Below, piece after piece: positions 15,688 through 54,069 of a stretch of 64,000 nt of DNA; within the stretch, counting starts at the first letter, position 1, and the number at the start of each line of letters is the position of its first letter. This DNA is from Planctomycetia bacterium (GTDB lineage Bacteria; Planctomycetota; Planctomycetia; Gemmatales; HRBIN36), in the NCBI GenBank assembly GCA_016795155.1, contig JAEUIE010000044.1, positions 188,224-252,223 of the forward strand, read 5' to 3'. The notes under the pieces were generated by a model. The model saw only the letters and a program-made list of their open reading frames with translations, made no database searches and was not told the DNA's origin. The translations under genes and the position numbers were made by a program.

Positions 15688-16617
15688 TTAACTGGTTCGA
15701 TGACCAGATATTTTCATGTAAATGTCTTCGAGATTGTCGTTCTTCACTGCCAGGGAGATCAGAGGAATTCCCTGATGCACCAGATGTTGATGTAGTGCAG
15801 GCAATTCCTCCCGAGCGCCGTGCCAGCGACCAATGATGCGCCCCTGCACCAGATCTACCTGCTGCACCGTCGGATGCGTTTTTAGAATGTTGAGAAGGGT
15901 ATCAGGTGGACCGAGGACTTCCAGCTCCAATCGCAATGCTGGTTGCAATTGCTGAAGAATATCAGTGACCTTGCCGCTTGCCAGCAATTCGCCACGTTCG
16001 ATAATCGCAACCGAGGTACAGAAATCCGCCATCTCAGTAAGAATGTGACTGCTGATCAGAATGGTACGACCCAACGCAATCAACTGCTTGAGCATTTCAC
16101 GAAATTCAATGCGCCCAGCCGGGTCCATTCCGCTGGCAGGTTCATCGAGCAGTAACACCTCGGGTTGATGAATCAGAGTCTTCGCCAGGCAAAGCCTCTG
16201 CCTCATGCCGCGAGACAGCCCTTTGATTTCAGCATCCTTCCGTTCACGCAGGCTAACCAGTTCAAGCACTTCGTCAACCAGCTTATCTCTTCTCTCCATG
16301 GAAGTGATGCCATAACAGCGGGCGAAGTGATCGAGATATTCCCAGACCAGCATGTCTTCATACACTGCAAAAACATCAGACAGGTAGCCCAGGTATTTGT
16401 GAACCTCCAGAGGCCGTTCGAGGATATCAATGCCCTTGATATGCACGCTGCCGTAGGTAGGCTCCAGCAGCGTAGCCAGTATGCGCAGCAATGTCGTCTT
16501 ACCTGCGCCATTAGGGCCGATCAGTCCGAAACACTCACCGCGAGGCACTTCTAAGGAAAGATTCTCTAATGCGACAAGCTGGTCATACTCTTTGCGAAGA
16601 TGTTTGATAGAGATCAT
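15688..16617 (-). CDS. ABC transporter ATP-binding protein
   Basis: 309 aa. Walker [10 protein letters not shown], signature LSRGMRQRL, Walker B LLLDEP, H-loop SSHIL. Confidence 0.92.
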
Positions 16618-24878: not shown

Positions 24879-24956
24879 TGCTTCTTCCACAATCATGATG
24901 GCATCCTGATCCCGGTGCGTTACAATCACGTTGACGCATCGGGAATTTTTTCATTC

Positions 24957-32286: not shown

Positions 32287-32466
32287 TTACTCTCTTTTCT
32301 TTTCAACTGATCGAACTCTTTTCCGGGCGCCATCATCATGCAGCATGCGATAGCTGGCATTTTCCAGATGATCGAACTGGCCAGTTTGGATGCACCAGCG
32401 GAAGGCAAGAAATGCAGCGAGTACCAGAAGTAGCGCCACGGGCAAGGCAATGTAGATCACACTCAT
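32287..32466 (-). CDS. ccoS: cbb3 oxidase maturation protein CcoS/FixS
   Basis: 59 aa: MSVIYIALPVALLLVLAAFLAFRWCIQTGQFDHLE... (single TM + SGQFDD-like motif). ATG overlaps the ccoI stop (ATGA). The 100-aa track ORF is an N-terminal over-extension. Confidence 0.85.
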   Translation of the reverse strand: MSVIYIALPVALLLVLAAFLAFRWCIQTGQFDHLENASYRMLHDDGARKRVRSVEKKRE

Positions 32467-34949
32467 GAGTCGCTCCTGAATGTTTGCTGGCTGGCAGCAA
32501 GTACAGTGACGGTGAGTGAACTGATCGGCATGAGGATGGCTGCCAGCAGGGGCGTGATGTACCCAGAAACAGCCAGTCCCATTGCACATAAATTATATCC
32601 TAGCGAGATGATCAATCCCCGACGAATGGCCTGCAGTGTACGTTTGCTGCCTTGCATAAGATCCAGAAGTGGTGCGAGCCCCGGCGTTCCCAGGTAAACG
32701 GGTGCAGTCTGCAACGCCACTTCTGCACCGCCTTGAACTGCAATTCCCACGGAAGCTGCAGCCAATGCCGCAGCGTCATTCACACCATCCCCCACCATCA
32801 CCACAGTACCGAACTGATTACGGGAATGCTTTACGATCTCCAGTTTGTGTTCTGGAGTTACCTCGCCGTAAGCCATGCTATCCGGTATCTGCAACTGGTC
32901 TGCAACCTGCCGAACAATGGATTGATGATCTCCGGAGAGAATACCAACTTGCCAGCCAGCCTGGCGCAGCGTCTGAAGACTGTCTGCCGCATCTCTGCGA
33001 ATGGCATCACCAAGGGCTGCCTGGGCTACCAGATTGCCATCGCAGGCAACGTAGATCGGCGTCCAGCCTGCCCTCAGCCAACCTGAGACCCTTTTAGTTG
33101 ACGAGACCGATAACGGAATCTGGAATCGTTCCATCATGGCTCGCGACCCGGCAACAAGATGCTGTCCATCCACCCAGCCTTCGACACCATATCCTGAGTG
33201 ATACTGCTGTTCCCGGCATAATGCAGGCTTGATATTTCCCATTCGCTCCCGCAGTGCATTGACCATTGAAACTGCCAAAGGATGGACAATGCCCTGTTCC
33301 AGGGCAAGAACGCCCGGCATGAACCGCTCATCCCCTTGCCAGTCCTTCAGTGTCACTTTCCCTTCGGTTATCGTGCCTGTCTTATCGAGCCAGACCATGC
33401 CCGGCTGGCTGAGTAGTTCAAAGACATCTCCTCGGCGAATGAGAATCTTCTGTCTCGCAGCCCGCCCCTGGGCGATGGCAATCGTCATGGGAGTGGCCAG
33501 CCCCAGGGCACAGGGACATGCGACAATGAGCAGAGCAATCGTGTGGTTGATGGCGATGACTGCACCCTGATGCCACCAGATGCCGAGCGTGACTGCAGCA
33601 AGCGTCAGCACCAGGTAGATGAAATAACCAGAAACACGATTAGCCAGTTCGACGATGGGGGTATGTGCCAGCGAAGCTGACTCGACCAGGTCCATCAGCT
33701 TGCCGATGCGACTGTCTTTTCCAATCGCAGCAACCCTCAGCCTCAGCACGCTGCCCAGGTTGGTAGCCCCGGCTGTGACAATACCGCCAGGTTGTATAGG
33801 TACACCAGCAGATTCCCCCGTCAGCAGGGATTGGTCAAGCGTGGATTGTCCGGAAAGCACAACGCCATCGGCTGGCAACAGGTCTCCCACTCGCACTTCC
33901 ACCTCGTCGCCCGGCTTCAGGGACACAGTGGGCACGCTTTCGATTCCTGTCGGGATTACGCGAAAGGCAATGCGAGGTGTCAGGCTGCGAAGCAACGACA
34001 GACTCTCCGCAGCACGCTGTTGTTGACGATACTGCAGAAAACGACCAATCAACAAGACAAAGATGAGCATGCACAGCGAATCGAAATAAATCTCCCCATT
34101 GCCCATGATGGTGTTGTAGATACCCATGATGCCGCCCGCTGCCAGGCCAATGGCGAGCGAGATATCCATATGTGGCATCCGGGCTCGCAGAGCATGCCAG
34201 GCCCCCCGGAAAAAGGTCGCTCCCGGCCAAAGCAGTGCAATCAGCCCCAGACCTGCGCTCACCCATCGCAAAATCGTTTCATGCTCGTGCGAGATGCCAT
34301 CAAATAATCCTCCGTAGAGGGCAAAAGCAATCAACATGCTGTTGCCTGCACAAAGCCCCGCCATGCCGAGCCTGACCAGATGCTGATGCATCTCCTTACG
34401 ATGTAGCGAGGTGCGGTGAGTTTCACTGGCAGGGTGACAGGCATAGCCCAATCGGGAAAGTTGACAGGCAATCTTCGAAAGTGGTAACTGCGACTGGTTC
34501 CAGCGTATCAGCACCTGGCGTGAAAGCAGCTGAGCTCGACTTTCCTGCACACCCTGGCAGAGCAACGGCAACTTTTCCACCAGCCAGACACATGCCGCAC
34601 AGTGCATCCCTTCCAGAATGAGACGTACTTCACTTAATCCACCTGGCAATTGACGGACATAGGTTGATTGGAAGGTTGGATCATCCATTTCCGAGTAATC
34701 ATCAGGCAGATTCCTGGCCTGAAGTGGTTGTGAATCAACCGAGCGACAGATCTGATAGAACGCATCCAATCCTTCGGCATGCAACAATTGCCAGACCGTG
34801 CTGCAACCCGAACAACAGAACTGTTCCTTTGCCCCAGGCGCCACCAATCCGGCTGGTACCGGCAATTGACAATGGGAACAAATCACCTCACTTCGCGTCG
34901 CTGAAGTGTGTACCGCTGAGCGAGATGGAAGTGCCAGGCTAGTCGTCAT
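32463..34949 (-). CDS. ccoI: Copper-translocating P1B-type ATPase CcoI/FixI
   Basis: CPC (VACPCALGLATP), DKTGTIT, GDGVNDA, N-terminal Cys-rich region (CSHCQLPV..CCSGC) and GMHCAACV HMA motif. ATG at 34949 preferred over 35003. Confidence 0.9.
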   Translation of the reverse strand: MTTSLALPSRSAVHTSATRSEVICSHCQLPVPAGLVAPGAKEQFCCSGCSTVWQLLHAEGLDAFYQICRSVDSQPLQARNLPDDYSEMDDPTFQSTYVRQLPGGLSEVRLILEGMHCAACVWLVEKLPLLCQGVQESRAQLLSRQVLIRWNQSQLPLSKIACQLSRLGYACHPASETHRTSLHRKEMHQHLVRLGMAGLCAGNSMLIAFALYGGLFDGISHEHETILRWVSAGLGLIALLWPGATFFRGAWHALRARMPHMDISLAIGLAAGGIMGIYNTIMGNGEIYFDSLCMLIFVLLIGRFLQYRQQQRAAESLSLLRSLTPRIAFRVIPTGIESVPTVSLKPGDEVEVRVGDLLPADGVVLSGQSTLDQSLLTGESAGVPIQPGGIVTAGATNLGSVLRLRVAAIGKDSRIGKLMDLVESASLAHTPIVELANRVSGYFIYLVLTLAAVTLGIWWHQGAVIAINHTIALLIVACPCALGLATPMTIAIAQGRAARQKILIRRGDVFELLSQPGMVWLDKTGTITEGKVTLKDWQGDERFMPGVLALEQGIVHPLAVSMVNALRERMGNIKPALCREQQYHSGYGVEGWVDGQHLVAGSRAMMERFQIPLSVSSTKRVSGWLRAGWTPIYVACDGNLVAQAALGDAIRRDAADSLQTLRQAGWQVGILSGDHQSIVRQVADQLQIPDSMAYGEVTPEHKLEIVKHSRNQFGTVVMVGDGVNDAAALAAASVGIAVQGGAEVALQTAPVYLGTPGLAPLLDLMQGSKRTLQAIRRGLIISLGYNLCAMGLAVSGYITPLLAAILMPISSLTVTVLAASQQTFRSDS

Positions 34950-35700
34950 GGCAGCACGGTAGTTTCGTTGTAGAAAGTTGTGGTATCGCTTCAGCACCGA
35001 CAAACTCGTTATTCGAGTGAATCGATAACCCGAACGTAGATCGATGCATCAATGTCATCGAGCCAAGAACCAGACAAGCGGCAATTGCAATCCAGGGCGT
35101 GGCTGATCGCCAGTGCTGCGATAGATGGCCTGCGGAAACACCAATCAAGCTCAGCATTGGTAAGGTTCCCAGCCAGAATGCCAGCATGATGACCATGCCA
35201 CTGACCACATCGCCACTACCTGCAGCCACTATGACAAAAGCGTATAACCAGCCACATGGAATCCAGGTGGTAAGCAGGCCGATCCACCAGGAACGGAAAA
35301 CTTCTGGCCAGGCTTTCGCCCAACGAAACCCGGCATAAATCCCTTTCACCCAGTGCTGCGGTATCGGCAGATGCTGTATTGGCACACCCGCTTGTCGCAA
35401 TAGCAACACTACAGCGCTCAGGAACATGGTGGCAGCCGCCAGGTACGCTGCCCCACGCTGCGACTCAACGAGCCAACCGGTGGAGTTCAAAGCCTGGCCT
35501 AACGCCCCGGCCAGCGTACCAAGCAGTACATAGGTTGTCAGCCTGCCCAGGTGGTAGGCTGTCAGCTTGCTGGACACACCTCGATCAGTTTCACCGGGTT
35601 TACCCGTCAACAGAAGCACAAACGGCCCGCACATACCGGCGCAATGTGTGCTGCCTAACAGGCTCGCTGCGACAATAGTCACCAGCAGTTCCAGATTCAT
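34939..35700 (-). CDS. TauE/SafE-like (COG2836-type) membrane protein with HCxxMCGP motif
   Basis: 253 aa, ~6-7 TM, N-terminal GSTHCAGMCGPF. ATGA overlap with fixH stop. Embedded in the cco maturation genes. Confidence 0.7.
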   Translation of the reverse strand: MNLELLVTIVAASLLGSTHCAGMCGPFVLLLTGKPGETDRGVSSKLTAYHLGRLTTYVLLGTLAGALGQALNSTGWLVESQRGAAYLAAATMFLSAVVLLLRQAGVPIQHLPIPQHWVKGIYAGFRWAKAWPEVFRSWWIGLLTTWIPCGWLYAFVIVAAGSGDVVSGMVIMLAFWLGTLPMLSLIGVSAGHLSQHWRSATPWIAIAACLVLGSMTLMHRSTFGLSIHSNNEFVGAEAIPQLSTTKLPCCHDD

Positions 35701-36233
35701 GAACTGAATCTCCAGAACTTTTCCTGTCGATCAACGAAGTGCTCGCCATCGCGAATTACGTTCAGATCAATCTGCCAGACCCCTGTTCTACCCAGTCGAG
35801 CCTGTCCGCGGTAAAGCCCCGTCTGATGCCCAACCGGCGTTAGCCGTACTTGTTGTCGCTGATTTCCCCGGGCATGGTGCCAGAGTTCCACGCTCACCTG
35901 TGCCATCTCCACCGGCTGATCCTGTGCGTTCTTTATCTCTACCGTGAAACTGTGAACAGGAGAACTACTGCTTGGAGTCTCAAGGTACACCTTCCACTTC
36001 CAACCCAGCCGCTCACTGGCTTGTCGTTCGCTTAGGATCTTGTCGTGTTCCATCGCCTGCTGATGATAATTGGGAATGACAGAATGCGTAGGATCACTGG
36101 TTGCCAGAACGATGGCAACCATACTCATGGAAAACTGAACCACAAAGAAACCTGCAATCAGGCCGCCCCACATCAGCCGGGCACGTCGTTCCGATTGCTG
36201 TTCCAGTTCGATCACGGCCCCAGTAGACGACAT
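35697..36233 (-). CDS. FixH-family protein
   Basis: 178 aa. One N-terminal TM then a beta-rich periplasmic domain. Position between ccoG and ccoI is typical of FixH/CcoH. Confidence 0.7.
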   Translation of the reverse strand: MSSTGAVIELEQQSERRARLMWGGLIAGFFVVQFSMSMVAIVLATSDPTHSVIPNYHQQAMEHDKILSERQASERLGWKWKVYLETPSSSSPVHSFTVEIKNAQDQPVEMAQVSVELWHHARGNQRQQVRLTPVGHQTGLYRGQARLGRTGVWQIDLNVIRDGEHFVDRQEKFWRFSS

Positions 36234-37609
36234 GTGATCTCCTTTCGTACCGTGCTGCCATCTTTGACGGCAAGCTTCAAATCATAATGCCCGAAGGTAA
36301 AGGCTGATTTCGGCACCGTGACCAGCACCGCATGCGTGTTCAGCTCCAAGGGCCTGGCCAGCCAGGGCTGACCAACTGCTTCGAGTTTCACTTCATCTTT
36401 CTTGACAGCACCAGTATCGAGCAGTTCCAGGGTGTAGCTGCGATCTTCCTGTTCACGATTCACGAGTTTGATCTGAAAAGTGTTCTGTACCGTGCCCTCA
36501 GCCGTCACAGTAAATGGACTGCCTAGTGTCCGCAGAACGGTAACATCCACAGGAGCACGCCGGCTCAGCACAATGACAAAGGCTGATACTGCAATCAACA
36601 GCAGCAGCGGATAGATCACCACGCGTGGGCGCAGCTTCTTGTGAGGTAATCCTTCGATGGCTTCTTGGCAGGAGTAACGAATCAGCCCGCGAGGTTTGTT
36701 GATCTTGTCCATGATCTCATCGCAGGCATCGATGCACTGCGTACAGTGGACGCATTCCATCTGCAGGCCCTGACGAATATCGATACCGGTAGGACACGTA
36801 CGTACACATAATCCGCAATCGATGCAGTCACCCTGGGTTCGTTCCGCCAACTGCAACTCGGTGCGAAGCTTGCCACGCGGTTCGCCCCGTTTCACATCGT
36901 AAGCCACAATCAGCGATTGCTTGTCGAGTAGAACCGATTGCAGCCTTCCGTAAGGGCATGCCACCAGACAGGTCTGTTCCCGAAAGTAGCCGAAGTCAAA
37001 AAGCATCAGCCCGGTGACGACCGCCATCACCATGAAGGCAACAGGATGGTTGAAGGGAGAGCCCAGGATCCAATGGCTGAGTTGATCTACACCAACGAAA
37101 TAGGCAAGAAACGTATGTGCCAGCAGCATTGAGACCATCAGATAGGCAACAAACTTCAGACTGCGTCGCCAGCCCGGTGTCAGCGAGGAGGGCTTGCCCC
37201 CCTTACCCATGGTACCATCAAAGAACCGTTCGATGGGGCGAAACACATATTCGAGATACACCGTCTGTGGACAGGCCCAGCCGCACCAGACCCGGCCATA
37301 CAGTGCCGTCAGCAGGAAGATGGTCAGAAACACGGAGACCATGAACAGCGCCAAAAGCAGCGTATCTGTCGGCAACAGCGTCAGACCGAAAAACGAAAAC
37401 TGCCGATGCAGCAGATCGAGCAGGATGGCTGGCTTGCCATTGATCTTCCAATGGGGAAGCAGCACAAAGAGGATGATCAGCCCGTACCCGACAAGACGCC
37501 GAGCATGCCAGTATCGTCCCGGAGAAAGACGAGGATAGAGCCAGCGGCGTGATCCATCTTTCTCCAGCGTCGAGAGGACATGTTCTTCAGGTTGCAGCAG
37601 GGCTGACAT
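36212..37609 (-). CDS. ccoG: cbb3 oxidase accessory 4Fe-4S protein CcoG/FixG
   Basis: 465 aa. CGWACPQTV, CIDCGLCVRTCP, CVHCTQCIDAC ferredoxin clusters, TM helices and C-terminal Ig-like domain. Confidence 0.9.
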   Translation of the reverse strand: MSALLQPEEHVLSTLEKDGSRRWLYPRLSPGRYWHARRLVGYGLIILFVLLPHWKINGKPAILLDLLHRQFSFFGLTLLPTDTLLLALFMVSVFLTIFLLTALYGRVWCGWACPQTVYLEYVFRPIERFFDGTMGKGGKPSSLTPGWRRSLKFVAYLMVSMLLAHTFLAYFVGVDQLSHWILGSPFNHPVAFMVMAVVTGLMLFDFGYFREQTCLVACPYGRLQSVLLDKQSLIVAYDVKRGEPRGKLRTELQLAERTQGDCIDCGLCVRTCPTGIDIRQGLQMECVHCTQCIDACDEIMDKINKPRGLIRYSCQEAIEGLPHKKLRPRVVIYPLLLLIAVSAFVIVLSRRAPVDVTVLRTLGSPFTVTAEGTVQNTFQIKLVNREQEDRSYTLELLDTGAVKKDEVKLEAVGQPWLARPLELNTHAVLVTVPKSAFTFGHYDLKLAVKDGSTVRKEITCRLLGP

Positions 37610-37621
37610 GATATTTCCTGC

Positions 37622-38191
37622 TTACTTCCAGGGTGGAATGGGGTTGCCTTCTGCAGCTTTGGCACCAGGCGGGTTGGATCCCCGCAGCGATGCCACATAG
37701 GCGCTCACCAACACCAGCTCGTTTGGATGCAGCCTATTCTTCCACGCAGGCATGGCCTGATTATTCGCACCGTTGGCTACCACAGTAGCAATATCCTCGA
37801 TAACTTTGACGTTTTTCCACTGCTCATCGGTCAGATTGGGGCCCACTTTGCCTTCACCCTTGTCACCATGACAGGAAACACAGTTGGACTTGTACACAAT
37901 CTCACCCACGGTACGCCATTTTGTATCATCCATGTATTTCAGAATGGTCGCGCGATCGGGCGTAAGTGTGCCGATCTCTGAAAATCGTATGCGAAGATCT
38001 TCCGCAACCTCTGCCGTGTAGCCATCGAGCGCAGATCGACCAGGTTCATTCGTATGGTAATAAACCCAATATCCAATGCTGAAGAAGATGCTGGCCACAA
38101 ACAGCCAGGTCCACCAGCCTGGAAGTGGATTGTCATACTCCTGGATCCCATCATACAGGTGATCCATGGGTTGTTGAGCTTGCTCACTCAT
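37622..38191 (-). CDS. ccoP: cbb3 oxidase subunit III (CcoP), mono-heme form
   Basis: 189 aa. FixP_N-type start DGIQEYDNPLPGWWTWLF, TM, a single CVSCH heme-c site with distal Met (NQAMPAW). Confidence 0.85.
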   Translation of the reverse strand: MSEQAQQPMDHLYDGIQEYDNPLPGWWTWLFVASIFFSIGYWVYYHTNEPGRSALDGYTAEVAEDLRIRFSEIGTLTPDRATILKYMDDTKWRTVGEIVYKSNCVSCHGDKGEGKVGPNLTDEQWKNVKVIEDIATVVANGANNQAMPAWKNRLHPNELVLVSAYVASLRGSNPPGAKAAEGNPIPPWK

Positions 38192-38367
38192 GCTCGGCGT
38201 ACCTCCGTGCCATCATTCAGTGGAATGCTGGCGTTGGCATGGGCTTCGGTCTTCCGCACGAAAAGCAGCGTGCGAATGGTGACAGCGAGAAATACCAGGA
38301 AGAACAGGATGAGCGCTGCTTCAGCACAGAAGGAGGCATCCAGATACTTCATCAAATCACGGATCAT
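38188..38367 (-). CDS. ccoQ: CcoQ/FixQ-like small membrane subunit (not in supplied ORF track)
   Basis: Hand translation: MIRDLMKYLDASFCAEAALILFFLVFLAVTIRTLLFVRKTEAHANASIPLNDGTEVRRA (59 aa, one TM). Starts 10 nt after the ccoNO stop. Its TGA overlaps the ccoP ATG (ATGA). Confidence 0.65.
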   Translation of the reverse strand: MIRDLMKYLDASFCAEAALILFFLVFLAVTIRTLLFVRKTEAHANASIPLNDGTEVRRA

Positions 38368-38376
38368 GTTCTCTCC

Positions 38377-40662
38377 TTACTTGGCAGCTACCTTTTTGCT
38401 CTCCGGAGTGGCAGGCTTGACGGGTGGCGTTTCAGGCTGCTCCACACCGAGCCGCTGCAGGTAAGCAATGATCGCCACCAGTTGTGTGCGCTCCAGGTTC
38501 TTCGGCAGACTGCCCTGCCCTCCGTTTTGTTGAATGATGTCATTAGCGATCTGCTTGGCCTGAGCCAACGCGATCGTCTCGGTATTCTCTATATCGGTTG
38601 GCCTGTAAGCCTGTCCTCCTGCCAGGAAATTATGTGCCCGCACACGTTCAGGCAGTGTCTTGAAATTCAACTCCGTTTGTTCGAAGGATGGATAAGCTGG
38701 CATGATCGAACCGGGGCTGGTATTCGTCGGGTTGCGGAAGTGAGTCGTGTGCCAGAGTGCATTCTGGGCTCCACCTTCACGAGCCAGATCAGGACCAATA
38801 CGGCGGGAACCCCACTGGAACGGATGGTCATACACGAACTCGCCTGGCTTGGAGTAGGGGCCGTACCGCTTGGTCTCCGCCAGGATAGGACGGATCATCT
38901 GTGAATGACAGTTGTAGCAGCCATTGGCGATGTAGAGATCGCGCCCCGCCAGTTCGAGCGGCGTGTATGGCTTCACCCCAGGCAGTGCTGGAATGTTTGA
39001 ACGAATGAGGAACGAGGGCACCAGTTCAAACAGCGTCGCTGCCACCACCGCAATCACCACCCAGACCGTGAACTTCAACGGCAGACGTTCCCAGCGGCGA
39101 TGCCACCACAGCGTCGACCATACATCAATCTTCTTGCCCATCTCCAGCACTGCTTCCAGCTTGGATTCAGGTGCAGGATCATCAACATAGTTACTGGTCA
39201 ACCGGGGGGCAGTGTAAACTGGTTCCTCGTAAACAGCGGGCCGAGCCATCCAGGTACGAATGAAGTTGTATAGACAGAGCACCGCACCCAGCAAAAACAG
39301 CAAGCCACCACCCACACGAATCCAGTACATCGGCATCAGCACCTGCACGGTTTCGATGAACTTGGGGTACATCAGATTGCCCTGCTCATCGATGGCCCGC
39401 CACATCAAACCCTGAGTCAATCCCGCAACATAGATGGGCACGATGTACAGCAGGATACCAATGGTGCCGAGCCAGAAGTGCCATTCCGCCAGTTTCTTGC
39501 TGTAGAGTTTGGTCTGGAAGATACGGGGTAGCAGCCAGTAGATCATGCCGAAAGTCATCATGCCATTCCAGCCAAGCGCCCCGCCATGCACATGGGCGAT
39601 CGTCCAGTCGGTGTAGTGGGACAAAGCATTGACTGACTTGATCGAAAGCACAGGGCCTTCAAAAGTAGCCATGCCATAAAAGGTGATTCCCACCACGAAG
39701 AACTTTAAAACAACATCTTCGGTGACTTTCTTCCAGGCCCCTCGGAGCGTGAGAAGCCCGTTGATCATGCCACCCCACGATGGCATCCAGAGCATCAGCG
39801 AAAAGAGCATGCCCAACGTCGTGCACCACTCCGGCGTGGCGGTGTAGTGCAAGTGGTGCGGGCCAGCCCAGATGTAAATGAAAACCAGCGACCAGAAGTG
39901 AATAATGCTGAGTTTGTACGAGAACACTGGACGTTCTGCGGCCTTGGGCAGGAAGTAGTACATCAGCCCAAGGAATGGAGTTGTCAGGAAAAACGCCACC
40001 GCATTGTGTCCATACCACCACTGCATGAAGGCATCCTGCACACCTGCGTAAATTGAATAACTTTGAAACAGCCCAACAGGTACCACCAGGCTGTTGAACA
40101 CATGCAGCACCGCAACAGTCACAATCGTGGCAATGTAGAACCAGAGTGCGACATACATGTGCCGTTCACGCCGGGTAGCCAATGTCATGAAAAAGTTCAC
40201 GCCGAAGAAACCGACCCAGACCACAGCAATGGCAAGATCAATCGGCCATTCCAGCTCGGCATATTCTTTACTTTGAGTGATTCCCAGAGGCAGCGTGATG
40301 GCCGCTGCTACGATGATAAGTTGCCAGCCATAAAAGTGAAGCCAACTGAGCGTATCGCTCCACATGCGGGCCTTGCACAGTCGTTGCGTGGAGTAGTAGA
40401 CCGCGGCAAAGATGGCGTTGCCACCGAAGGCGAAGATGGCGGCATTGGTATGCAGTGGGCGCAATCTGCCAAACGAGGTGAACGTCCAGCCCAGGTTCAG
40501 GGCCGGCACTACCAGTTGCAGGGCGATGATCACTCCGACCAGCATTGCCACCACCGCCCATACACAGGTGATGAGCGCGAAGGCTCGCACTATCTTGTCG
40601 TCGTATTTAAACTCTTCGAGTGTAACAGCAGGCGATTGAGCAGCGGATTGGCTCATGTACAC
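38377..40662 (-). CDS. ccoNO: Fused cbb3-type cytochrome c oxidase subunits I and II (CcoN-CcoO)
   Basis: 761 aa. Heme-copper subunit I helices with WAGPHHLHY, HVHGGALGW, HFWLG His ligands. C-terminal third has a TM + CYNCHSQMIRP heme-c motif of CcoO. Confidence 0.93.
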   Translation of the reverse strand: MYMSQSAAQSPAVTLEEFKYDDKIVRAFALITCVWAVVAMLVGVIIALQLVVPALNLGWTFTSFGRLRPLHTNAAIFAFGGNAIFAAVYYSTQRLCKARMWSDTLSWLHFYGWQLIIVAAAITLPLGITQSKEYAELEWPIDLAIAVVWVGFFGVNFFMTLATRRERHMYVALWFYIATIVTVAVLHVFNSLVVPVGLFQSYSIYAGVQDAFMQWWYGHNAVAFFLTTPFLGLMYYFLPKAAERPVFSYKLSIIHFWSLVFIYIWAGPHHLHYTATPEWCTTLGMLFSLMLWMPSWGGMINGLLTLRGAWKKVTEDVVLKFFVVGITFYGMATFEGPVLSIKSVNALSHYTDWTIAHVHGGALGWNGMMTFGMIYWLLPRIFQTKLYSKKLAEWHFWLGTIGILLYIVPIYVAGLTQGLMWRAIDEQGNLMYPKFIETVQVLMPMYWIRVGGGLLFLLGAVLCLYNFIRTWMARPAVYEEPVYTAPRLTSNYVDDPAPESKLEAVLEMGKKIDVWSTLWWHRRWERLPLKFTVWVVIAVVAATLFELVPSFLIRSNIPALPGVKPYTPLELAGRDLYIANGCYNCHSQMIRPILAETKRYGPYSKPGEFVYDHPFQWGSRRIGPDLAREGGAQNALWHTTHFRNPTNTSPGSIMPAYPSFEQTELNFKTLPERVRAHNFLAGGQAYRPTDIENTETIALAQAKQIANDIIQQNGGQGSLPKNLERTQLVAIIAYLQRLGVEQPETPPVKPATPESKKVAAK

Positions 40663-40701
40663 AAGTCCTTGCTAGGGCAACGAACAACCATGCAGGGAGG
40701 A

Positions 40702-40717
40702 AGCAACTTGTGTACCA
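40702..40717 (-). promoter_or_regulatory. Sigma54 (-24/-12) promoter candidate upstream of ccoNO
   Basis: Minus strand reads TGGTACACAAGTTGCT versus consensus TGGCACG-N4-TTGCW. GG and GC have the exact 12-nt register. -12 GC lies about 40 nt upstream of the ccoNO ATG. Confidence 0.6.
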
Positions 40718-40749
40718 AATCATTACAGGCTGGTTTTCAAGGGGTCGGG

Positions 40750-40786
40750 GTGTGCGACCTCTCCATACCTGTGCGGCATCGCACAC
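40750..40786. promoter_or_regulatory. Inverted repeat GTGTGCGA-N21-TCGCACAC (UAS or terminator candidate)
   Basis: Perfect 8-bp arms at 40750-40757 and 40779-40786, abutting the EBP stop codon and centred ~50 nt upstream of the -24 element. Confidence 0.35.
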
Positions 40787-42126
40787 TACCAAGATGTGAT
40801 GCCATGCTTTTCCAATAACCGGTACAGCGAACGGCGAGTAATACCCAGTGACTGGGCTGCCTGCGATTTATTGCCCTGTGATCGCTGCATCGCTTCGATG
40901 ACCTTGCGGCGGGTCATATCTCCAAGTACCAGCGATTCCTGAGAAGTGACGATGGTGGCTGCATCGCTGGTTTCCACCACTTCTGGCGGGAAGTTTTTCA
41001 GTTCAATTAGATTGTCTTCCGCCAATATCTTCGCCCGTTCGATGGCGTTTCTAAGTTGTCTTATATTGCCCGGCCAATCATACTGAAGCAGTGCTGGAAC
41101 AACGTTCTCCGCGACACGCCAGCCGTTACCCAGGAAATGATGAAACAGCAGCGGGAGATCACCGGTACGTTCCCTCAATGGCGGCAAATGCAGTGTCAGC
41201 AGATTGATGCGATAAAAAAGATCTTCCCGAAACCGTCCGGCTTTGACTTCAGCCGATAAATCGCGATTAGTGGCAGCAATCAACCGTACGGTCACTCGGC
41301 GTTCCTTGATGGAACCAACTCGTCGCAAGCTGCCGTCTTCCAGAATTCGCAACAGCTTGGGTTGAAGAGTCGGGCTCAGTTCGCCTATCTCGTCTATAAA
41401 CAAGGTGCCACCGTCTGCCACCTCGAACAGACCGGGCTTTGCAGAAGCTGCACCGGTAAATGCCCCTTTCTCATGTCCAAACAGTTCACTTTCCAGAAGC
41501 TGATCCGGCAAGGCGGCACAGTTGATGGTGACCAGCGGCTGTGATGCCAGCGGACTGGCAGCCACCAAAGCCCGTGCCACCAGTTCCTTGCCTGTTCCGC
41601 TTTCACCCTGAATGAGTACGGGTTTGTCAGTTGGGCCCATGCGTTGAATCAGCCGTTGTACCTGCTGCATCGCTACTGATTCGCCGATCAACTCGACCCC
41701 AGGCTGCCTTTTTCTGATCAATTCCCTGAGGTGTTGATTCTCCCTTTCAATCTTTCTCTGATGCAGTTGCCTTTCAAGAACTGCCTGCAGTTCAGCCAGA
41801 CGAACGGGTTTTTGAAGGAAATCGACTGCTCCGCACTTCATGGCCTCAACAGCAAGGGGAATCGTACCCTGCCCCGACATCATCACGACTGCACAGTCGT
41901 GGTTTCTTTCCTGCAGTAGTTTGAGAAAATCCATGCCCGTTTGTTCTGGCATAAAGTAATCGACTATTGCACAGGCTACATCTTTCTCAACAAGATATTT
42001 CAACCCTTCCTGAACAGAACCAACCGACAGCACCTGATAACCAAGTCGGATAAGGTTGCGTGCCACTTGTTCGCGCAAATCAGGGTCATCATCAATAAGC
42101 AGCAACTCAGCAGAATGCAACGGCAT
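40786..42126 (-). CDS. Sigma54-dependent enhancer-binding response regulator (NtrC family)
   Basis: Receiver (LLLIDDDPD.., AIVDYFMP), AAA+ core [14 protein letters not shown] loop, C-terminal Fis-type HTH. ATG at 42126 preferred. The track ORF starts at a TTG at 42192. Confidence 0.9.
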
Positions 42127-42157: not shown

Positions 42158-42526
42158 CTATGAAGAAGCGGTAGCAGCGATAGCTGCTTCAAAATCTTGC
42201 CGTTTCACGGGCTTGCGAAGATAGGACCAGGCTACCTGTGCATCATCGGGCGGAAATTGGCCTGACAGTTGATAAGCCGATATGAGAATCGTCGGAATGG
42301 GATGCGTTTTCCAGATTTCACGGATTGCCTGTTCGCCATCGAGTTGTGGCATCCGCACATCGCTGATGATCAAGTCCGGGTGTAATCGTTGACAGGCTTC
42401 CACCAGAGCCGTTCCGTTGTCGACCGCTGCCACCACTTCGTGGCCCAGTCGTTTAATGACTTTGCTGTAGTGATCGCGTATCTCCGCTTCATCGTCGGCG
42501 ATAGCGATCCGCAGGTGACGGGCCAT
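42158..42526 (-). CDS. Stand-alone response-regulator receiver protein
   Basis: 122 aa. IAIADDE, phospho-acceptor context LIISDVRMP, conserved K region (ILISAY). Confidence 0.85.
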   Translation of the reverse strand: MARHLRIAIADDEAEIRDHYSKVIKRLGHEVVAAVDNGTALVEACQRLHPDLIISDVRMPQLDGEQAIREIWKTHPIPTILISAYQLSGQFPPDDAQVAWSYLRKPVKRQDFEAAIAATASS

Positions 42527-43715
42527 GGTTCTCTCGAGGCAGAATCACACGAAACTCCGCACCAGGCAGATTTGCAGGTCCCAAATGGAGTTGTCCGCCA
42601 TGTGCTTCGACAATGCGATGTGCAATTGCCATGCCTAATCCGGTACCTTTGCTTTTCGTCGTAAAAAACGGTTCAAAAACATGCTGGCGTGCGGATTCGC
42701 TCAACCCTGGCCCATTGTCTCGCACACGCACTTCCACCATGGGCTGCTCTTCCCGTTCCAGAGAGCGGATTTCTAAATCTATTTCCACTGGATCAGAACA
42801 AGCTGCCAAAGAATTCTCAAAAAAATTACGCAGAAGTTGCTGCAACCGAAACGGATCGTAGCTGCCTTCTTCCATTCCAGGCTCAATAGTCAGATTTAAT
42901 TTCGCCTGCCTGCCAAGCTTAGGAAGCGATAGGCTCTCCCATGCCTGCTCTACCATGTTCCGCCAATAAACTTTTTCTTTCTCCAACACAATAGGGGCCG
43001 CATAATTCTGCACTTCAGTCAACAGCCTGGTAAGATCATCCTGCGCTACACTCAATCGACTCAAGTCCTGTTGAACTTCCTTATTACCTTCCAGGTCAAG
43101 CTCCAGACTTTCCGTGGAAGCCCGCATACGCTGCAAAGCATTACGTGCCTCATGGGCCAGTCCCGTAATCATCTGGCCAATGGAAGCCAGACGCTCATCC
43201 TGCTTTGCTTGTGTCCTCTGTCTGATTTGAAGCTCTGCTTCGTATGCGGCAGAAATAAGCGCCAGATCAATATCAAGAAGCTTGTGCAGTGTTATCAAGC
43301 ATTGTCTCAGTTGAGGCAGATCTTTTTTCAGTTCCTCCAGGAGTACGCACTGCATCTGCATACGCAAACGTCCATGAGCTATATTGACATATGTTTGATC
43401 CAGCCCGATCTCCACATGACGATATCCTACCTGCCAGCGTCGCTGGATGTACTCGTTGTCGTATTCACCAGCCAGCAATTCCTTCAGCCACTTCTCCAGG
43501 CTGATTTTCAGTCGGGCAATCTGCTGATCACCACCAACAATAACCTGGGCAACTTTGGGATGACGCACAATTTCACTGTAGAAATCTTCAACGAAAACCT
43601 GGCTGAAAGGCATTAACAGGTTGTTTAACTCTTTGACAGTCTGGCTGTCCTGTGGTGACCAGTTAATGTAACGCTTCAGCAGATCATACTTTTCGAAGAT
43701 GAATTGATGGATCAT
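42489..43715 (-). CDS. Globin-coupled sensor histidine kinase (soluble)
   Basis: 408 aa, no TM. N-terminal ~150 aa match the sensor-globin pattern (VEDFYSEIVRHP..; RRWQVGYRHVEIGL with candidate proximal His100). H-box LAHEARNAL (His188). HATPase N/G boxes (RDNGPGL, GTGLGMA). Confidence 0.8.
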   Translation of the reverse strand: MIHQFIFEKYDLLKRYINWSPQDSQTVKELNNLLMPFSQVFVEDFYSEIVRHPKVAQVIVGGDQQIARLKISLEKWLKELLAGEYDNEYIQRRWQVGYRHVEIGLDQTYVNIAHGRLRMQMQCVLLEELKKDLPQLRQCLITLHKLLDIDLALISAAYEAELQIRQRTQAKQDERLASIGQMITGLAHEARNALQRMRASTESLELDLEGNKEVQQDLSRLSVAQDDLTRLLTEVQNYAAPIVLEKEKVYWRNMVEQAWESLSLPKLGRQAKLNLTIEPGMEEGSYDPFRLQQLLRNFFENSLAACSDPVEIDLEIRSLEREEQPMVEVRVRDNGPGLSESARQHVFEPFFTTKSKGTGLGMAIAHRIVEAHGGQLHLGPANLPGAEFRVILPRENHGPSPADRYRRR

Positions 43716-43855
43716 ATCGTTCCCTGATCACCAGCCAAAATTACTTTCGAAATATCAGATTCGGTACGGTCACTCTATCAGTATTCTTCCCTGATCACAT
43801 TCAGATTTCTGGTATGCACCTGAAAAATGTACTTCACACTTCGACTCGAATCATT

Positions 43856-51192: not shown

Positions 51193-51831
51193 TTACGGTG
51201 AAATAATGTGATGTTTGATGGCATACTGTACTAATTCTGCATTGGTTTTGATCTGCAGTTCTTCCATCAGGCTGTACTTGTGAAATGCTACTGTACGAGG
51301 CGTTATTTTCATGATACGGGCAACTTCCTTCATGGTTTTGCCTTCCGCCAGCAGTTGCAGCACCTCACGTTGTCTCGGACTCGGTTCTGACTTGCGACCA
51401 TTGTTGTTATGCCTCAATTGAAAAGTGCCAGCCAGTTCTTTTGAAGATGGAGGAGTTACATACGTTCTCCCCTGTTGCACGGTTTGAATAGCTTGCACTA
51501 ATTCCGTGGTGGCAGCGTTTTTCAACAGGTAACCGGACGCACCAATTTGAAATGCTTCCGCCATCAGATCAGGGTCTTCATTCATGGTCAGAAAGATGAT
51601 CTTACATTGAGGTTGTATCTGCTTGAGTTGCCTGGCTGCATCCAGTCCGTTCAGCAAAGGCATGGCAATATCCAGCACAACGATTTCCGGCTGAAGCTTT
51701 CTGGCAGCTGCCAGCAAGGCTCTTCCATCCGAAACGGAACCCAGGACTGTACAATAGGGTTCAAGCAGTTTGGTCAGTGCTTCGCATAATAAGCGATGGT
51801 CATCAGCCAATAATACGCGTGGCATTCCCAT
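51193..51831 (-). CDS. NarL/LuxR-family response regulator
   Basis: 212 aa. VLLADDH, VVLDIAMP receiver. C-terminal LuxR HTH (LSPRQREVLQLLAEGKTMKEVA). Confidence 0.9.
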   Translation of the reverse strand: MGMPRVLLADDHRLLCEALTKLLEPYCTVLGSVSDGRALLAAARKLQPEIVVLDIAMPLLNGLDAARQLKQIQPQCKIIFLTMNEDPDLMAEAFQIGASGYLLKNAATTELVQAIQTVQQGRTYVTPPSSKELAGTFQLRHNNNGRKSEPSPRQREVLQLLAEGKTMKEVARIMKITPRTVAFHKYSLMEELQIKTNAELVQYAIKHHIISP

Positions 51832-51834
51832 GGC

Positions 51835-54069
51835 TTATGTCCTTTCAGCTGGCTCTGGCGAATATTCCAGTTGTTCATTAGAAGAAATGGATTCCTGTGT
51901 TGTCATCTCGAACGGTACACGAACTTCAATCCGTGTACCTTTCCCTGGCTTGGCGGATAACTGAACAGATCCCTGCACCAGGCGTACTCGTTCACGCATG
52001 CTGAGCAGGCCAAGGCCAGGCTTTTCATTGCTGCTCTCCGGATCAAATCCTCTGCCGTCATCTTGTATGGTCATCACCAAATGATGGTCCATACTTTTTA
52101 ACTGCACCTCAATGATCTCCGCATCAGCATGTTTAATTGCATTATTCAAAGCTTCCTGGGCTATTCGGTAGAAACACAGCGAGGTGTTGACAGGCAAAGA
52201 GAAATCCAATTCCTCGATATCGTAATCGATCACCACATCATGAGTACTGCTGAGTTCGCGACACAGGCTTCGCAACGACTTGATGAGCCCCAACTGCTCG
52301 AGCTTGGCGGGATGCAACTGATGCGACAGATTATGGACAAAAGTAGAAAGTTGCTTGACCTTGATGGATAGCTCCCGTGTTCGCTCAGCGAATTCTTGGG
52401 TATCCACCTCCTTGGAATGAGCAAGCATGTCGAGCTCGACTGCAATCAAGGCCAGGTTCTGGTTCAAGTCATCGTGCAGTTCTCGCGCAATGCGACGACT
52501 TTCTGTTTCCTGGGCTGTCAGTAATTTTCCTGTCAAAGCAGTCAGTTCCTCCTGGCTCTGCTCCAGTCTGGAAGCGGCAATTTTTCGCTCGCTGATATCT
52601 ACAATAGTTGCCAGCACCAGCGTCTTGCCATTCGAGCGGATGGGGTTCAACCCGATTTCCACGGGAAACTCACTACCATCCTTGCGTCGAGCAAAAAGTT
52701 CTCGCTCTTTCCCCATTGGTCGTGCAAGGGGTGATTGGAAAAATTGTTCCCTCCATTGTTCATGATGAATCTGCCAGGGTATGGGAACGAGGTGTTCCAG
52801 CGGAATCTGTTGAAACTCCGATTTACCATAGCCGAACATTTTCTCCATCTGGGCATTCACGAGCACGATCCGGCCGTTGCGCTCCACCATTAACATCCCG
52901 TAAGGCGAGGCATCCACGGAGAGTCGAAACTGATTCTCCGCCTGCTGCCGCGAACTTCGTTGCAGCAATAACCCTGCTATCAGAAGTGTTTGTGCCAGCA
53001 ACAAGGCGAGTGCGCCTACTATCTGCCAGCGATATAGTTCCCAGACGCCTGGCTGCTCATTATCGATGATGACACCGACAGGCAGTTGAGAATGTGAGGT
53101 AGCCCATCGCTGATATTCCTGGCCATCAATCAGAATGCTGTTCTGCACCTCACCACGATGGACAATTCCCCTGGGAGATTCACCCTGCAGCATTCGATTG
53201 ACCAGCCAGGCTGCATTCTTCCCTTCGTTGGCAAAGCTCATCAACTTTCCACCAACAATGCCTTTGCAATGATAAACCTGCAGATGGCCATAGATTGGCA
53301 CCCGGGCAACTTTCTTCATCATGCTAAGCACTTCGGGTGCAGCATAACTGGCGCCCGTATTATCCTTTTGTAGATGCAGATAATAGATGAAGCTTCCTGC
53401 GCCTATCTTGCTGACTTTATCCAGCAGATCATGTATCGACAAATCAGCCAGATGTACGATTTCCAATTGTGGTGCAACACGACTGAAATTCTGATCAGCC
53501 TTTTCCTTCCAGTACTTGTCATACGTAGATGAGCCCGAGACAACGTAGACACGCCTGGCGTCGGGATGAATACCCAGCGCCATTTGCATGGTGGCTTCAC
53601 TGTCGAATTTCATGGGAACGCCGACCATGTTATCGGGTAGTTTTTCACTGCTTAATTCATTCTCCTCTATGGCTGCAAACACCACAGGAACATCCGGCAG
53701 ACTTTTTTGATAGTTTTTGAAGAAGTTAAACGAATGCTTGAGACCCACGACAACGGTTTCCAGTTTGATAGTGGCATATTTCTGCTGCAGAAATTTCGCG
53801 AGTTGTTCCTGATATTTCTGATCTGGAAATCGGACAGCATCCAGGAACTCGTAATAAAACTCAATTTTCTGCTTTGAATGCTCCAGCAGATATTGACGAA
53901 ATGCCTGATCAAACTCAATGATGCCGGGGCGACCTGCCATATCAGGATAGATCACCAGAACTTTCCTGCTCGTGACATCCTCGGCCCAGACATGTAACGA
54001 AGAAAAAAGCAGCACCATTATTGCATTAAACAAAACTCCCGATTTGGTATTTCGCATGTGCTGAAGCAT
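51835..54069 (-). CDS. Sensor histidine kinase (HisKA_3 type) with periplasmic solute-binding-like domain and PAS domain
   Basis: 744 aa. Signal/TM, ~300-aa periplasmic domain resembling ABC substrate-binding fold, TM, PAS, H-box ARELHDDLNQ, HATPase (DDGRGF, GLGLLSMRER). Confidence 0.85.
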   Translation of the reverse strand: MLQHMRNTKSGVLFNAIMVLLFSSLHVWAEDVTSRKVLVIYPDMAGRPGIIEFDQAFRQYLLEHSKQKIEFYYEFLDAVRFPDQKYQEQLAKFLQQKYATIKLETVVVGLKHSFNFFKNYQKSLPDVPVVFAAIEENELSSEKLPDNMVGVPMKFDSEATMQMALGIHPDARRVYVVSGSSTYDKYWKEKADQNFSRVAPQLEIVHLADLSIHDLLDKVSKIGAGSFIYYLHLQKDNTGASYAAPEVLSMMKKVARVPIYGHLQVYHCKGIVGGKLMSFANEGKNAAWLVNRMLQGESPRGIVHRGEVQNSILIDGQEYQRWATSHSQLPVGVIIDNEQPGVWELYRWQIVGALALLLAQTLLIAGLLLQRSSRQQAENQFRLSVDASPYGMLMVERNGRIVLVNAQMEKMFGYGKSEFQQIPLEHLVPIPWQIHHEQWREQFFQSPLARPMGKERELFARRKDGSEFPVEIGLNPIRSNGKTLVLATIVDISERKIAASRLEQSQEELTALTGKLLTAQETESRRIARELHDDLNQNLALIAVELDMLAHSKEVDTQEFAERTRELSIKVKQLSTFVHNLSHQLHPAKLEQLGLIKSLRSLCRELSSTHDVVIDYDIEELDFSLPVNTSLCFYRIAQEALNNAIKHADAEIIEVQLKSMDHHLVMTIQDDGRGFDPESSNEKPGLGLLSMRERVRLVQGSVQLSAKPGKGTRIEVRVPFEMTTQESISSNEQLEYSPEPAERT

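Follow-up and report, generated by a model that had tools for sequence, protein, structure and literature searches.

What does a soluble globin-coupled histidine kinase do at the head of the regulatory genes of a cbb3 cytochrome oxidase? The question is raised by a 64-kb stretch of DNA from a Planctomycetia bacterium, a Gemmatales-like planctomycete (NCBI GenBank assembly GCA_016795155.1, contig JAEUIE010000044.1, positions 188,224 to 252,223), here called the window, in whose own numbering all coordinates are given unless another locus is named. On the minus strand of the window a kinase gene is followed by genes for a single-domain receiver (REC), for an NtrC-type, sigma-54-dependent enhancer-binding protein (EBP) that itself carries a receiver domain, and for the fused oxidase subunits CcoNO. 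This gene order agrees with a first, sequence-only reading of the window, which had placed the kinase at the head of a co-directional regulatory unit upstream of ccoNO. In textbook accounts cbb3 oxidases are regulated by FixLJ-FixK, FNR/ANR or RegBA. We think it probable that here a heme gas sensor, its ligand being most likely O2, controls the adjacent cbb3 operon through a short two-component path.

The sequence-only reading had also held that no route from a globin-coupled histidine kinase to cbb3 had been described, a view overturned by the NmpRSTU relay of Myxococcus xanthus (PMC11841059, PMC6211767). In that relay NmpU phosphorylates NmpT, a protein with two receiver domains (2xREC), and the receiver of the hybrid kinase NmpS, by which NmpS is switched off; in hypoxia NmpS phosphorylates the NtrC-like NmpR, which NmpU does not phosphorylate in vitro (PMC6211767). 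NmpR binds pairs of the site GCGCA-N5-TGCGC and activates seven sigma-54 promoters (PMC11841059), its targets including an operon for a P-type ATPase and a cbb3 oxidase as well as USP, hemN-hemerythrin and CBS-protein genes (PMC11841059; J Bacteriol 2025). The M. xanthus nmpR gene is separated from nmpSTU, and homologues of nmpSTU in Planctomycetes were already noted in 2018 (PMC6211767). Judged by gene content and sequence, the window locus is a shortened, target-linked version of the Nmp relay on a different kinase family and not a new principle; a search of the literature found no paper describing the compact kinase-REC-EBP-cco arrangement.

The kinase gene is an exact open reading frame (ORF) for 408 amino acids (42489–43715, minus strand), and the opposite (plus) frame is riddled with stops; the sequence-only reading had named no strand. 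Among Pfam models, Protoglobin (PF11563) matched residues 10–162 (E = 1.4e-28; 100.3 bits, cut-off 25) and HATPase_c matched residues 287–395 (E = 5e-22), both above cut-off, whereas HisKA, at residues 180–237, reached 21.1 bits and stayed under its gathering cut-off of 26.9. Of the domains named by the sequence-only reading, the sensor and the ATPase were therefore recovered directly by the domain search and HisKA was not. The assignment of HisKA with His188 nevertheless held on other grounds: the whole kinase core, including the dimerization and histidine phosphotransfer (DHp) region, is aligned in full by the NCBIfam models for AtoS (E = 4e-43) and ZraS (E = 6e-36) and end to end by VirA-like and FixL models (FixL, E = 6e-25). 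The structure of the ZraS cytoplasmic domain (9jfj) matches the core with E = 1.8e-26 and is the top Foldseek match of the full-length kinase model; the FixL-core chimera structures 4gcz and 8a3u match it with E of about 1e-21. All kinase boxes are present, namely the H-box with His188 (HEARN) and the N (297), G1 (333), F (347) and G2 (357) boxes. Neither a PAS domain (by Pfam) nor a transmembrane segment was found in the 408 residues, as had been proposed; the maximum of the Kyte-Doolittle 19-residue average, 1.51, falls on the amphipathic last globin helix. In an AlphaFold2 model of the full-length protein (predicted local distance difference test, pLDDT, 80.9) a single unbroken helix, residues 133–207, runs from the last helix of the globin through His188. 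The protein is thus laid out as a globin (residues 1 to about 165), the coupling helix (133–207), the DHp histidine (His188, in HEARNALQR) and the boxes of the catalytic and ATP-binding domain (CA). Its C-terminal tail, PSPADRHRRR, is conserved between the window and seven relatives (L001–L007) where the start of the REC gene overlaps it. At the level of sequence we regard it as confirmed that 42489–43715 encodes a soluble globin-coupled histidine kinase.

The sensor half resembles that of AfGcHK, the globin-coupled histidine kinase of Anaeromyxobacter sp. Fw109-5, which has NmpU as its M. xanthus homologue and is reportedly the subject of Kitanishi et al. 2011 and of later work. The AfGcHK globin structure (5ohe) aligned with residues 10–161 of the window kinase without a gap (E = 3.5e-24) and with an offset of +1, so that Tyr46 corresponds to AfGcHK Tyr45, Leu69 to Leu68 and His100 to His99. 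These three residues, like His188, are invariant across 18 homologues, and the choice of Tyr46 as the B10 tyrosine and His100 as the proximal histidine in the sequence-only reading was correct by this measure. The globin (residues 1–165) was also modelled and searched alone because the fold search with the full-length protein was dominated by its kinase half. The resulting AlphaFold model (pLDDT 89.9; predicted template modelling score, pTM, 0.86) is nearest to the AfGcHK globin (Foldseek template modelling scores 0.86/0.92, root-mean-square deviation 1.3–1.6 Å), followed by Tlr1989, a Geobacter globin-coupled sensor and HemAT, and has the 3-on-3 sensor-globin fold; sequence identity to the AfGcHK and NmpU-like globins is 33–50%. 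In AfGcHK, His99 is the proximal heme ligand, Tyr45 was shown by experiment to recognise O2, and the enzyme is active in its Fe(III), Fe(II)-O2 and Fe(II)-CO forms and inactive as five-coordinate Fe(II) (PMC8697598). The H96A substitution deprives NmpU of its heme and of its kinase activity (PMC11841059). The match to AfGcHK in alignment and fold suggests by analogy that the window globin binds heme and O2.

A globin of this kind would be expected on an AfGcHK- or NmpU-like kinase, and the sequence-only reading had described the protein as AfGcHK type. That label fits the globin; core, H-box and coupling-helix length are those of another kinase family. A metagenome scan was seeded on the globin domain and the loci obtained were sorted with local domain hidden Markov models into two types. 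In Type A (globin at least 61% identical to that of the window) the kinase gene is followed by REC, EBP and ccoNO; in Type B (globin 43–52% identical; 37 loci including L009) it is followed by REC-REC, REC-(PAS)-kinase and a single REC, with an EBP completing the order in L009 and L158. Type B is the Nmp architecture. The gene next to the kinase encodes a single REC in all 11 Type A loci and REC-REC in the 37 NmpU-like loci. A separate contig scan, using full-length alignment and ATP-lid motif seeds (F[ED]PF[FY]TTK, [ST]KGTGLGMA), returned mostly unrelated kinases; L009 and L008 were useful. L009 (9992–18770; complete genome of the planctomycete isolate Anatilimnocola sp. NA78, NZ_CP187419.1) holds a full Nmp-type relay consisting of the globin-coupled kinase, 2xREC, a REC-PAS-kinase, REC and EBP, the EBP frame being broken by an in-frame stop near 13984.

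The core of the window kinase has a mean identity of 29% to 53 Type B (NmpU-position) cores and 42% to 17 NmpS-like cores, and is 41–51% identical to the cores of PAS-containing histidine kinases (PAS-HKs) and of kinases with both globin and PAS domains (globin-PAS-HKs). In BLASTP the window kinase was 60% identical to the core of one globin-PAS-HK (P0018) and 39% identical to the NmpS-like core of L009; with the NmpU-like protein of L009 it shared 35% overall, with the similarity concentrated in the globin. The first DHp helix reads HE[AS]RNALQR..A in Type A, in the 17 NmpS-like kinases, in PAS-HKs and in globin-PAS-HKs, whereas the H-box of 48 NmpU-like kinases is HELRNPLNVVKT (HE[LI]RNPLNV). 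Residues Q, R and A at positions +7, +8 and +11 from the histidine are shared by Type A and the 17 NmpS-like proteins and differ in the NmpU-like ones; these are among the positions that determine partner specificity (Laub-lab work, cited in PMC6211767). The spacing from the F8 histidine to the phospho-accepting histidine is 88 residues in 11 of 11 Type A proteins and 84 (54 proteins) or 83 (4 proteins) in 58 NmpU-like ones; His99 and His183 of AfGcHK give 84 (PMC8697598), so that the window helix is four residues longer. In other RNA-type globin-coupled kinases the spacing varies from 90 to 225. What the window kinase shares with AfGcHK and NmpU is therefore the soluble N-terminal globin with its matching His, Tyr and Leu, fused by a helix to a HisKA-type kinase; it differs from them in the HEARNALQR rather than HELRNPLNV H-box, in the core, in the coupling length and in the genes that follow, which are a single REC and then the EBP instead of 2xREC and an inverter kinase. 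By these sequence comparisons it is not an AfGcHK/NmpU orthologue, and its core is of the NtrB/ZraS/NmpS type. The locus has a gene for neither an NmpS-like (REC-HisKA-CA) nor an NmpT-like protein, and no NmpS-like gene turned up in the rest of the 64-kb window either.

With the pairs NtrB-NtrC, ZraS-ZraR and AtoS-AtoC the locus shares the type of kinase core and a REC-AAA+-HTH_8 partner, but in those pairs the sensors are PAS, periplasmic or PII-controlled and the targets are others. The globin-PAS-HKs (P0018 in L169, P0057 in L168) are closer: their core (60%), globin (48%), C-terminal tail and kinase-REC-EBP triad are those of the window, and they differ by an insert of about 110 amino acids between globin and DHp, a PAS domain by Pfam in most of them, which the window clade lacks. 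As these are the closest whole-protein relatives, we do not favour a plain deletion joining nmpU to nmpS; loss of PAS from the globin-PAS-HK lineage is the more parsimonious origin suggested by the sequences, although the data do not decide the matter.

We then have to ask whether the kinase has anything to do with the oxidase. Kinase homologues 65–78% identical to that of the window were traced back to their contigs, one of them (L001) from a Gemmatales metagenome-assembled genome (MAG). The block kinase-REC-EBP-ccoNO is intact in all seven loci with enough sequence (the window, L001, L002, L003, L006, L007 and L090), and the truncated contigs L004, L005, L088 and L089 fit this order. In full, the conserved block comprises kinase (406–409 amino acids), REC (122), EBP (444), ccoNO, a small ORF, ccoP, ccoG, fixH, a DsbD_2 gene and ccoI, whereas the flanks upstream of the block differ in every lineage. 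Between the window and L001–L007 amino acid identity is 86–93% for CcoNO, 62–77% for the globin, 73–86% for REC and 67–78% for EBP. A PAS-containing cousin, L169, has the same kinase-REC-EBP-cco arrangement with the same palindrome and sigma-54 promoter, both described below. Since the block is conserved amid unrelated flanks, together with the promoter and enhancer palindrome, a functional link of the regulatory unit to the cbb3 operon is well supported by sequence, and the connection between kinase and adjacent oxidase drawn in the sequence-only reading has, at that level, been borne out.

The 123-bp gap between the EBP gene and ccoNO contains a sigma-54 (−24/−12) promoter, TGGTAC-ACAAG-TTGCT, at 40702–40717 on the minus strand, with GG at 40716–40715 and GC at 40704–40703. 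This element, TGGTACACAAGTTGCT, has the canonical GG-N10-GC spacing, precedes the ccoNO ATG by about 45 nt and is the sole match to TGGYAY-N5-TTGCW in the window, for which 0.5 were expected in 64 kb on both strands; the pattern [TC]GGTA[CT]-N5-TTGC[TC] is kept in seven further loci (L001, L002/3, L006, L007, L090, L169). The predicted transcription start, near 40692, would leave some 35 nt before the ATG. A candidate upstream activating sequence (UAS), the palindrome TGTGCG-ATGC-CGCACA (40770–40785, minus strand), abuts the EBP stop codon and is centred at about −86 from the predicted start. It has no second exact copy in the 64-kb window, and its arms recur at the same position with a different 4-nt spacer in L001, L006, L007 and L169; among the window, L001, L006 and L007 the 13-nt interval downstream of it diverges as well. 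After that interval comes a third half-site, CGCACA (40751–40756, minus strand), and the arrangement CGCACA-N11-14-CGCACA occurs once each in the window, L001, L002, L003, L006, L007 and L090, each time between the EBP gene and ccoNO. Neither a sigma-70-like promoter nor a terminator is present in the gap, and the NmpR consensus GCGCA-N5-TGCGC was sought there and is absent. Upstream of the kinase gene no UAS or sigma-54 element was found in the window, where the palindrome and the half-site pair are confined to the cco gap; a sigma-70-like match at 43738–43711 is not credible, as it overlaps the kinase start codon. In sediment metatranscriptome contigs from relatives 90–95% identical, material which may include DNA and in which contig ends are poor proxies for 5' ends, ccoNO and ccoP are covered to depths of 20–500 and the segment corresponding to 40615–41096 to about 0–2, with all ccoNO contigs ending at 40627–40668.

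Two further matches to these elements are recorded here. Within the kinase coding region a copy of the UAS palindrome with one mismatch (CGTGCGGATTCGCTCA, 42688–42703, plus strand) is probably due to chance. In L001 a sigma-54-like element, TGGTATGAGAATTGCA (9851–9866, minus strand), is directed away from the kinase gene and toward an ORF (9383–9799) for 138 amino acids with faint similarity to cytochrome c' (E = 0.004); the window has nothing equivalent.

Sigma-54 promoters depend on an EBP, and the one encoded directly upstream is therefore the obvious candidate activator. Its gene (40786–42126, minus strand; ATG at 42126, the mechanical ORF running from a TTG at 42192) encodes 446 amino acids, against 444 as called in relatives, with a receiver domain (Asp56, Lys106), Walker A at 174, GAFTGA at 221, Walker B at 242 and a C-terminal, Fis-type HTH_8 domain (Pfam: PF00158, E = 7e-68; PF00072, E = 6e-24; PF02954, E = 6e-10). 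GAFTGA, Asp56 and Lys106 are invariant and the helix-turn-helix is conserved among relatives; identity to Type B EBPs is 45–51%. About 31 nt upstream ends the gene for the 122-residue receiver, REC122 (42158–42526, minus strand; Asp11/12, phospho-acceptor Asp56, Lys105), whose start codon lies 38 nt within the 3' end of the kinase gene. REC122 is 48% identical to the lone 145-residue REC of L009 (score 242) and 38% identical to the NmpT-like RR1 (score 102), so by sequence it appears to correspond to the single REC encoded after the NmpS-like kinase in loci of the Nmp type.

From these elements the following course of events can be proposed. His100 of the globin would ligate the heme, and Tyr46 and Leu69 would line the distal pocket. 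A change in heme ligation or spin state would be passed along helix 133–207 to DHp helix 1 and so set autophosphorylation of His188, a coupling mechanism that is itself conjectural. The phosphoryl group would go directly from His188 to Asp56 of the EBP and also to Asp56 of the translationally coupled, co-transcribed REC122, which would most likely act as a competing phosphate sink. Direct transfer from kinase to EBP is proposed because of the gene arrangement, the NmpS-like residues at the DHp specificity positions and the M. xanthus biochemistry, where NmpS and not NmpU phosphorylates the activator. Phosphorylated EBP on the palindrome and the extra CGCACA, some 60–90 bp upstream, would open the sigma-54 promoter, and ccoNO, the ccoQ-like ORF, ccoP, ccoG, fixH, the DsbD_2 gene and ccoI would be transcribed. 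In evolutionary terms this would be an Nmp relay minus its 2xREC sink and its inverter, the globin having moved onto the type of kinase that feeds the activator; a two-step relay lacking the inverter is proposed because the locus has neither an NmpT nor an NmpS gene and the core is NmpS-type. The locus would share with NmpRSTU a globin sensor on top, an NtrC-type sigma-54 activator, a cbb3 and Cu-ATPase operon as target and an NmpS-type core feeding the activator, its lone REC and EBP being homologous to those of planctomycete Nmp-type loci. The differences are that it has neither the NmpT sink nor the NmpS inverter and carries the globin directly on the NmpS-type core, that the path is shorter by one step (two against three) and by one sign inversion, that its regulators are physically joined to the target operon, that its enhancer is TGTGCG-N4-CGCACA rather than GCGCA-N5-TGCGC, and that it belongs to the phylum Planctomycetota. 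FixL-FixJ-FixK is a more distant parallel: there, too, a heme O2-sensing kinase, as the window protein may be by analogy, governs cbb3 expression and the kinase cores are similar, but the sensor is a heme-PAS domain and the output is a FixJ/LuxR-type regulator with an FNR-like cascade on sigma-70 promoters.

Several points weigh against this scheme. That the protein binds heme, which ligand it senses, how its kinase is regulated, where the phosphoryl group goes, where the EBP binds DNA and where transcription starts are in each case inferences. To the HisKA score below cut-off and the limits of the metatranscriptome contigs must be added that, in L002/L003 and L090, CGCACA-N12-CGCACA is kept but the left half of the palindrome is degenerate, and that the UAS is a product of phylogenetic footprinting only, because it is unlike the defined NmpR site. 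No rpoN gene was found by Pfam scans of all large ORFs in the 64-kb window, the scans on which our inventory of its kinases, receivers and rpoN is based; the presence of sigma-54 in the genome is assumed because an EBP is encoded. The genome may encode an NmpS- or NmpT-like protein at another place. Lastly, in the Nmp relay it is the inverter NmpS that converts a sensor kinase switched on by bound O2 into a regulon expressed in hypoxia; without an inverter, AfGcHK-like polarity would induce cbb3 oxically, contrary to usual physiology; as the inverter is absent, either polarity or physiology must therefore differ from the known cases.

This brings us to the sign of the O2 response. We lean, by a little, to O2-bound heme lowering the net kinase output, as in FixL, so that cbb3 would be induced in hypoxia by analogy with M. 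xanthus. The guess is made because sister regulons look hypoxic. In L168 (8001–13150) the genes for a globin-PAS-HK, REC and EBP are followed by Usp and DUF4404 genes, with hemerythrin, Usp and BON genes nearby, although no sigma-54 promoter was detected in the EBP-Usp gap by the pattern used; in L009 two consensus sigma-54 promoters beside the relay, at 16391 (minus) and 16669 (plus), face Usp and hemerythrin-like genes and CBS and AAA_33/APH genes. By their annotation these neighbours resemble the M. xanthus NmpR regulon. The strongest competitor keeps the same wiring and gives the kinase the polarity of AfGcHK: six-coordinate, low-spin, O2-bound heme would turn it on, and the arrival of O2 would induce cbb3. 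We hold this to be the less probable sign, yet a serious one, since the characterised globin-coupled enzymes of this branch are all O2-activated (AfGcHK, PMC8697598; NmpU is predicted to be alike, PMC11841059) and the distal and proximal residues are identical to those of AfGcHK. It would also suit an organism found in metagenomes from bioreactors, sludge, anaerobic digesters and soil, settings in which shifts from anoxic to oxic conditions are frequent, even if such habitats fit either sign, and whose relative L006 has nrfHA-type nitrite respiration genes adjoining the module. Set against it are the homologous M. xanthus regulon, which includes cbb3 and is on in hypoxia (PMC11841059), and the known cbb3 regulators FixLJ-FixK and FNR/ANR, which induce at low O2; moreover, AfGcHK polarity is not transferable because both core and linker length differ from AfGcHK. 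We rejected the idea of reading polarity from linker length, as the groups differ in kinase core and the spacings of other RNA-type globin-coupled kinases vary from 90 to 225.

A history that would lead to induction by O2 is an uncompensated loss of the inverter, in which the globin kept AfGcHK polarity and came to drive the EBP directly. This is a tentative proposal and on balance an unlikely one; if true, an O2-induced cbb3 oxidase would follow a logic opposite to control by FixLJ, FNR/ANR and Nmp. The mirror case, in which the same globin was re-coupled with inverted sign to another core through a helix four residues longer, would be equally informative. With either sign, the window clade and its Nmp-type cousins would form a natural matched pair on the sign of the signal in globin-coupled kinases. 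The comparison of the clade (spacing 88) with NmpU and AfGcHK (84) bears on how the ligand state of the heme sets a kinase on or off and on how evolution flips or keeps the sign as a relay shortens.

Far behind the question of sign comes that of the ligand. It is improbable that the globin senses NO, CO or the Fe(III)/Fe(II) redox state and that the oxidase is tuned to nitrosative or redox stress. The inhibition of cbb3 oxidases by NO would speak for such a role, as would the fact that heme sensors often bind several gases; AfGcHK itself also has activity with Fe(III) or Fe(II)-CO heme and responds to redox changes (PMC8697598). The Tyr-B10 and Leu distal pocket, however, stabilises O2 in AfGcHK (PMC8697598), the target is an O2 reductase with its assembly genes, and the hemerythrin and Usp genes of the sister regulons are typical of hypoxia responses.

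We give still less credit to the view that the window kinase is after all an AfGcHK/NmpU orthologue on top of a full relay, its sink and inverter being encoded elsewhere and another kinase feeding the EBP. Nmp-type relays do exist in Planctomycetota (L009; PMC6211767), nmpR lies apart from nmpSTU in M. xanthus as well, and the globin has the same fold as, and 33–50% identity to, those of AfGcHK and NmpU-like proteins. These resemblances stop at the globin: the core is 29% identical to NmpU-like cores and has the H-box and specificity positions of NmpS, the coupling length is 88 and not 84, 2xREC is the next gene in none of the 11 Type A loci as against 37 NmpU-like genes, and a tight kinase-REC-EBP operon is conserved. 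Least probable of all is an incidental adjacency to cco, with the EBP acting on distant sigma-54 promoters and ccoNO transcribed independently: bacterial EBPs are able to act on unlinked promoters and the triads of L168 and L009 adjoin Usp, hemerythrin or CBS genes and not cco, but the block is intact in seven loci and L169 while everything upstream differs, the only promoter-like element of the gap is of a type that requires an EBP, and at enhancer distance stands a unique palindrome whose arms are conserved although its spacer has diverged.

A route from globin to NtrC-type activator to sigma-54 was shown only in 2025, in one myxobacterium and as a four-protein relay. If control of the cbb3 operon by the heme-sensing kinase is as we propose, the Planctomycetota locus would realise the same sensory idea in minimal form, with sensor, sink, activator, enhancer, promoter and target within 11 kb; being self-contained, it would be a far simpler system for reconstitution. 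There is also a consequence for annotation, in that 'Protoglobin + HATPase' proteins comprise at least two kinase families with different partners, which the H-box (HE[AS]RNALQR versus HELRNPLNV) and the next gene serve to distinguish.

The target operon continues downstream on the minus strand. The fused ccoNO gene (38377–40656; subunit I plus mono-heme subunit II) has an ATG at 40656 that aligns with the starts in relatives, and its product scores 1184 bits with NF011053 (cut-off 1080) and is over the cut-offs of TIGR00780 and TIGR00781. It is followed by an ORF in the ccoQ position (38188–38367) for 59 amino acids with a single transmembrane segment and no Pfam match, a gene of 58–68 amino acids at this place being present in all relatives, and by a ccoP-like gene for subunit III (37622–38191; 189 amino acids, FixP_N and one cytochrome c domain, Cytochrome_CBB3). 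The maturation block (32463–37609) consists of ccoG (36212–37609; FixG_C), fixH/ccoH (35697–36233; FixH), a gene for a DsbD_2 membrane protein (34939–35700; DsbD_2) and ccoI for a Cu-transporting P-type ATPase (32463–35003; P-type ATPase with ATPase-cat_bd), and its gene order is identical in L001, L002, L003, L006, L007 and L169. Upstream of the kinase lie unrelated amylase-family, esterase and GH63-like genes. The Pfam scans of large ORFs revealed no second kinase of the same type and no other oxidase within the 64-kb window.

Other contigs hold variants of this neighbourhood. In a Pirellula sp. MAG (L008, 499–10723) a PAS-HK of 377 amino acids stands directly after ccoI of a ccoNO-ccoP-ccoG-...-ccoI cluster; its core is 45–47% identical to that of the window kinase, so that kinase family and gene neighbourhood are shared and the sensor domain differs. 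L118 (54–13924) has a divergent cbb3 cluster (ccoN 31%, ccoO 49%, ccoI, DsbD_2) about 5 kb upstream of an Nmp-type relay, so that globin relays near cco genes are not confined to Type A. In L143 (2546–3376; PVMS01122051.1) and L145 (5166–6074; PVMK01127930.1) a single ORF joins a Protoglobin-type globin directly to a sigma-54 AAA+ domain 61–66% identical to that of the window EBP, both ORFs running off the contig end. These are candidates for a one-component, globin-coupled EBP with the globin in place of the receiver, and we know of no characterised globin-sigma-54 AAA+ fusion.

Some further genes of the window were recorded in passing. Two of them carry annotations that hint at redox or oxygen but show no link to the module: one (59–2005, minus strand) encodes a Ser/Thr protein kinase of 648 amino acids fused to an AhpC/TSA thioredoxin-like domain, and the other (24915–27260, plus strand) a protein of 781 amino acids with a BatA ('aerotolerance regulator' N-terminal) domain and VWA. 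At 51193–54069 (minus strand) there is an unrelated regulatory pair, made up of a 744-residue PAS-HisKA_3 kinase with a periplasmic-like N-terminus and a LuxR/GerE-type response regulator.

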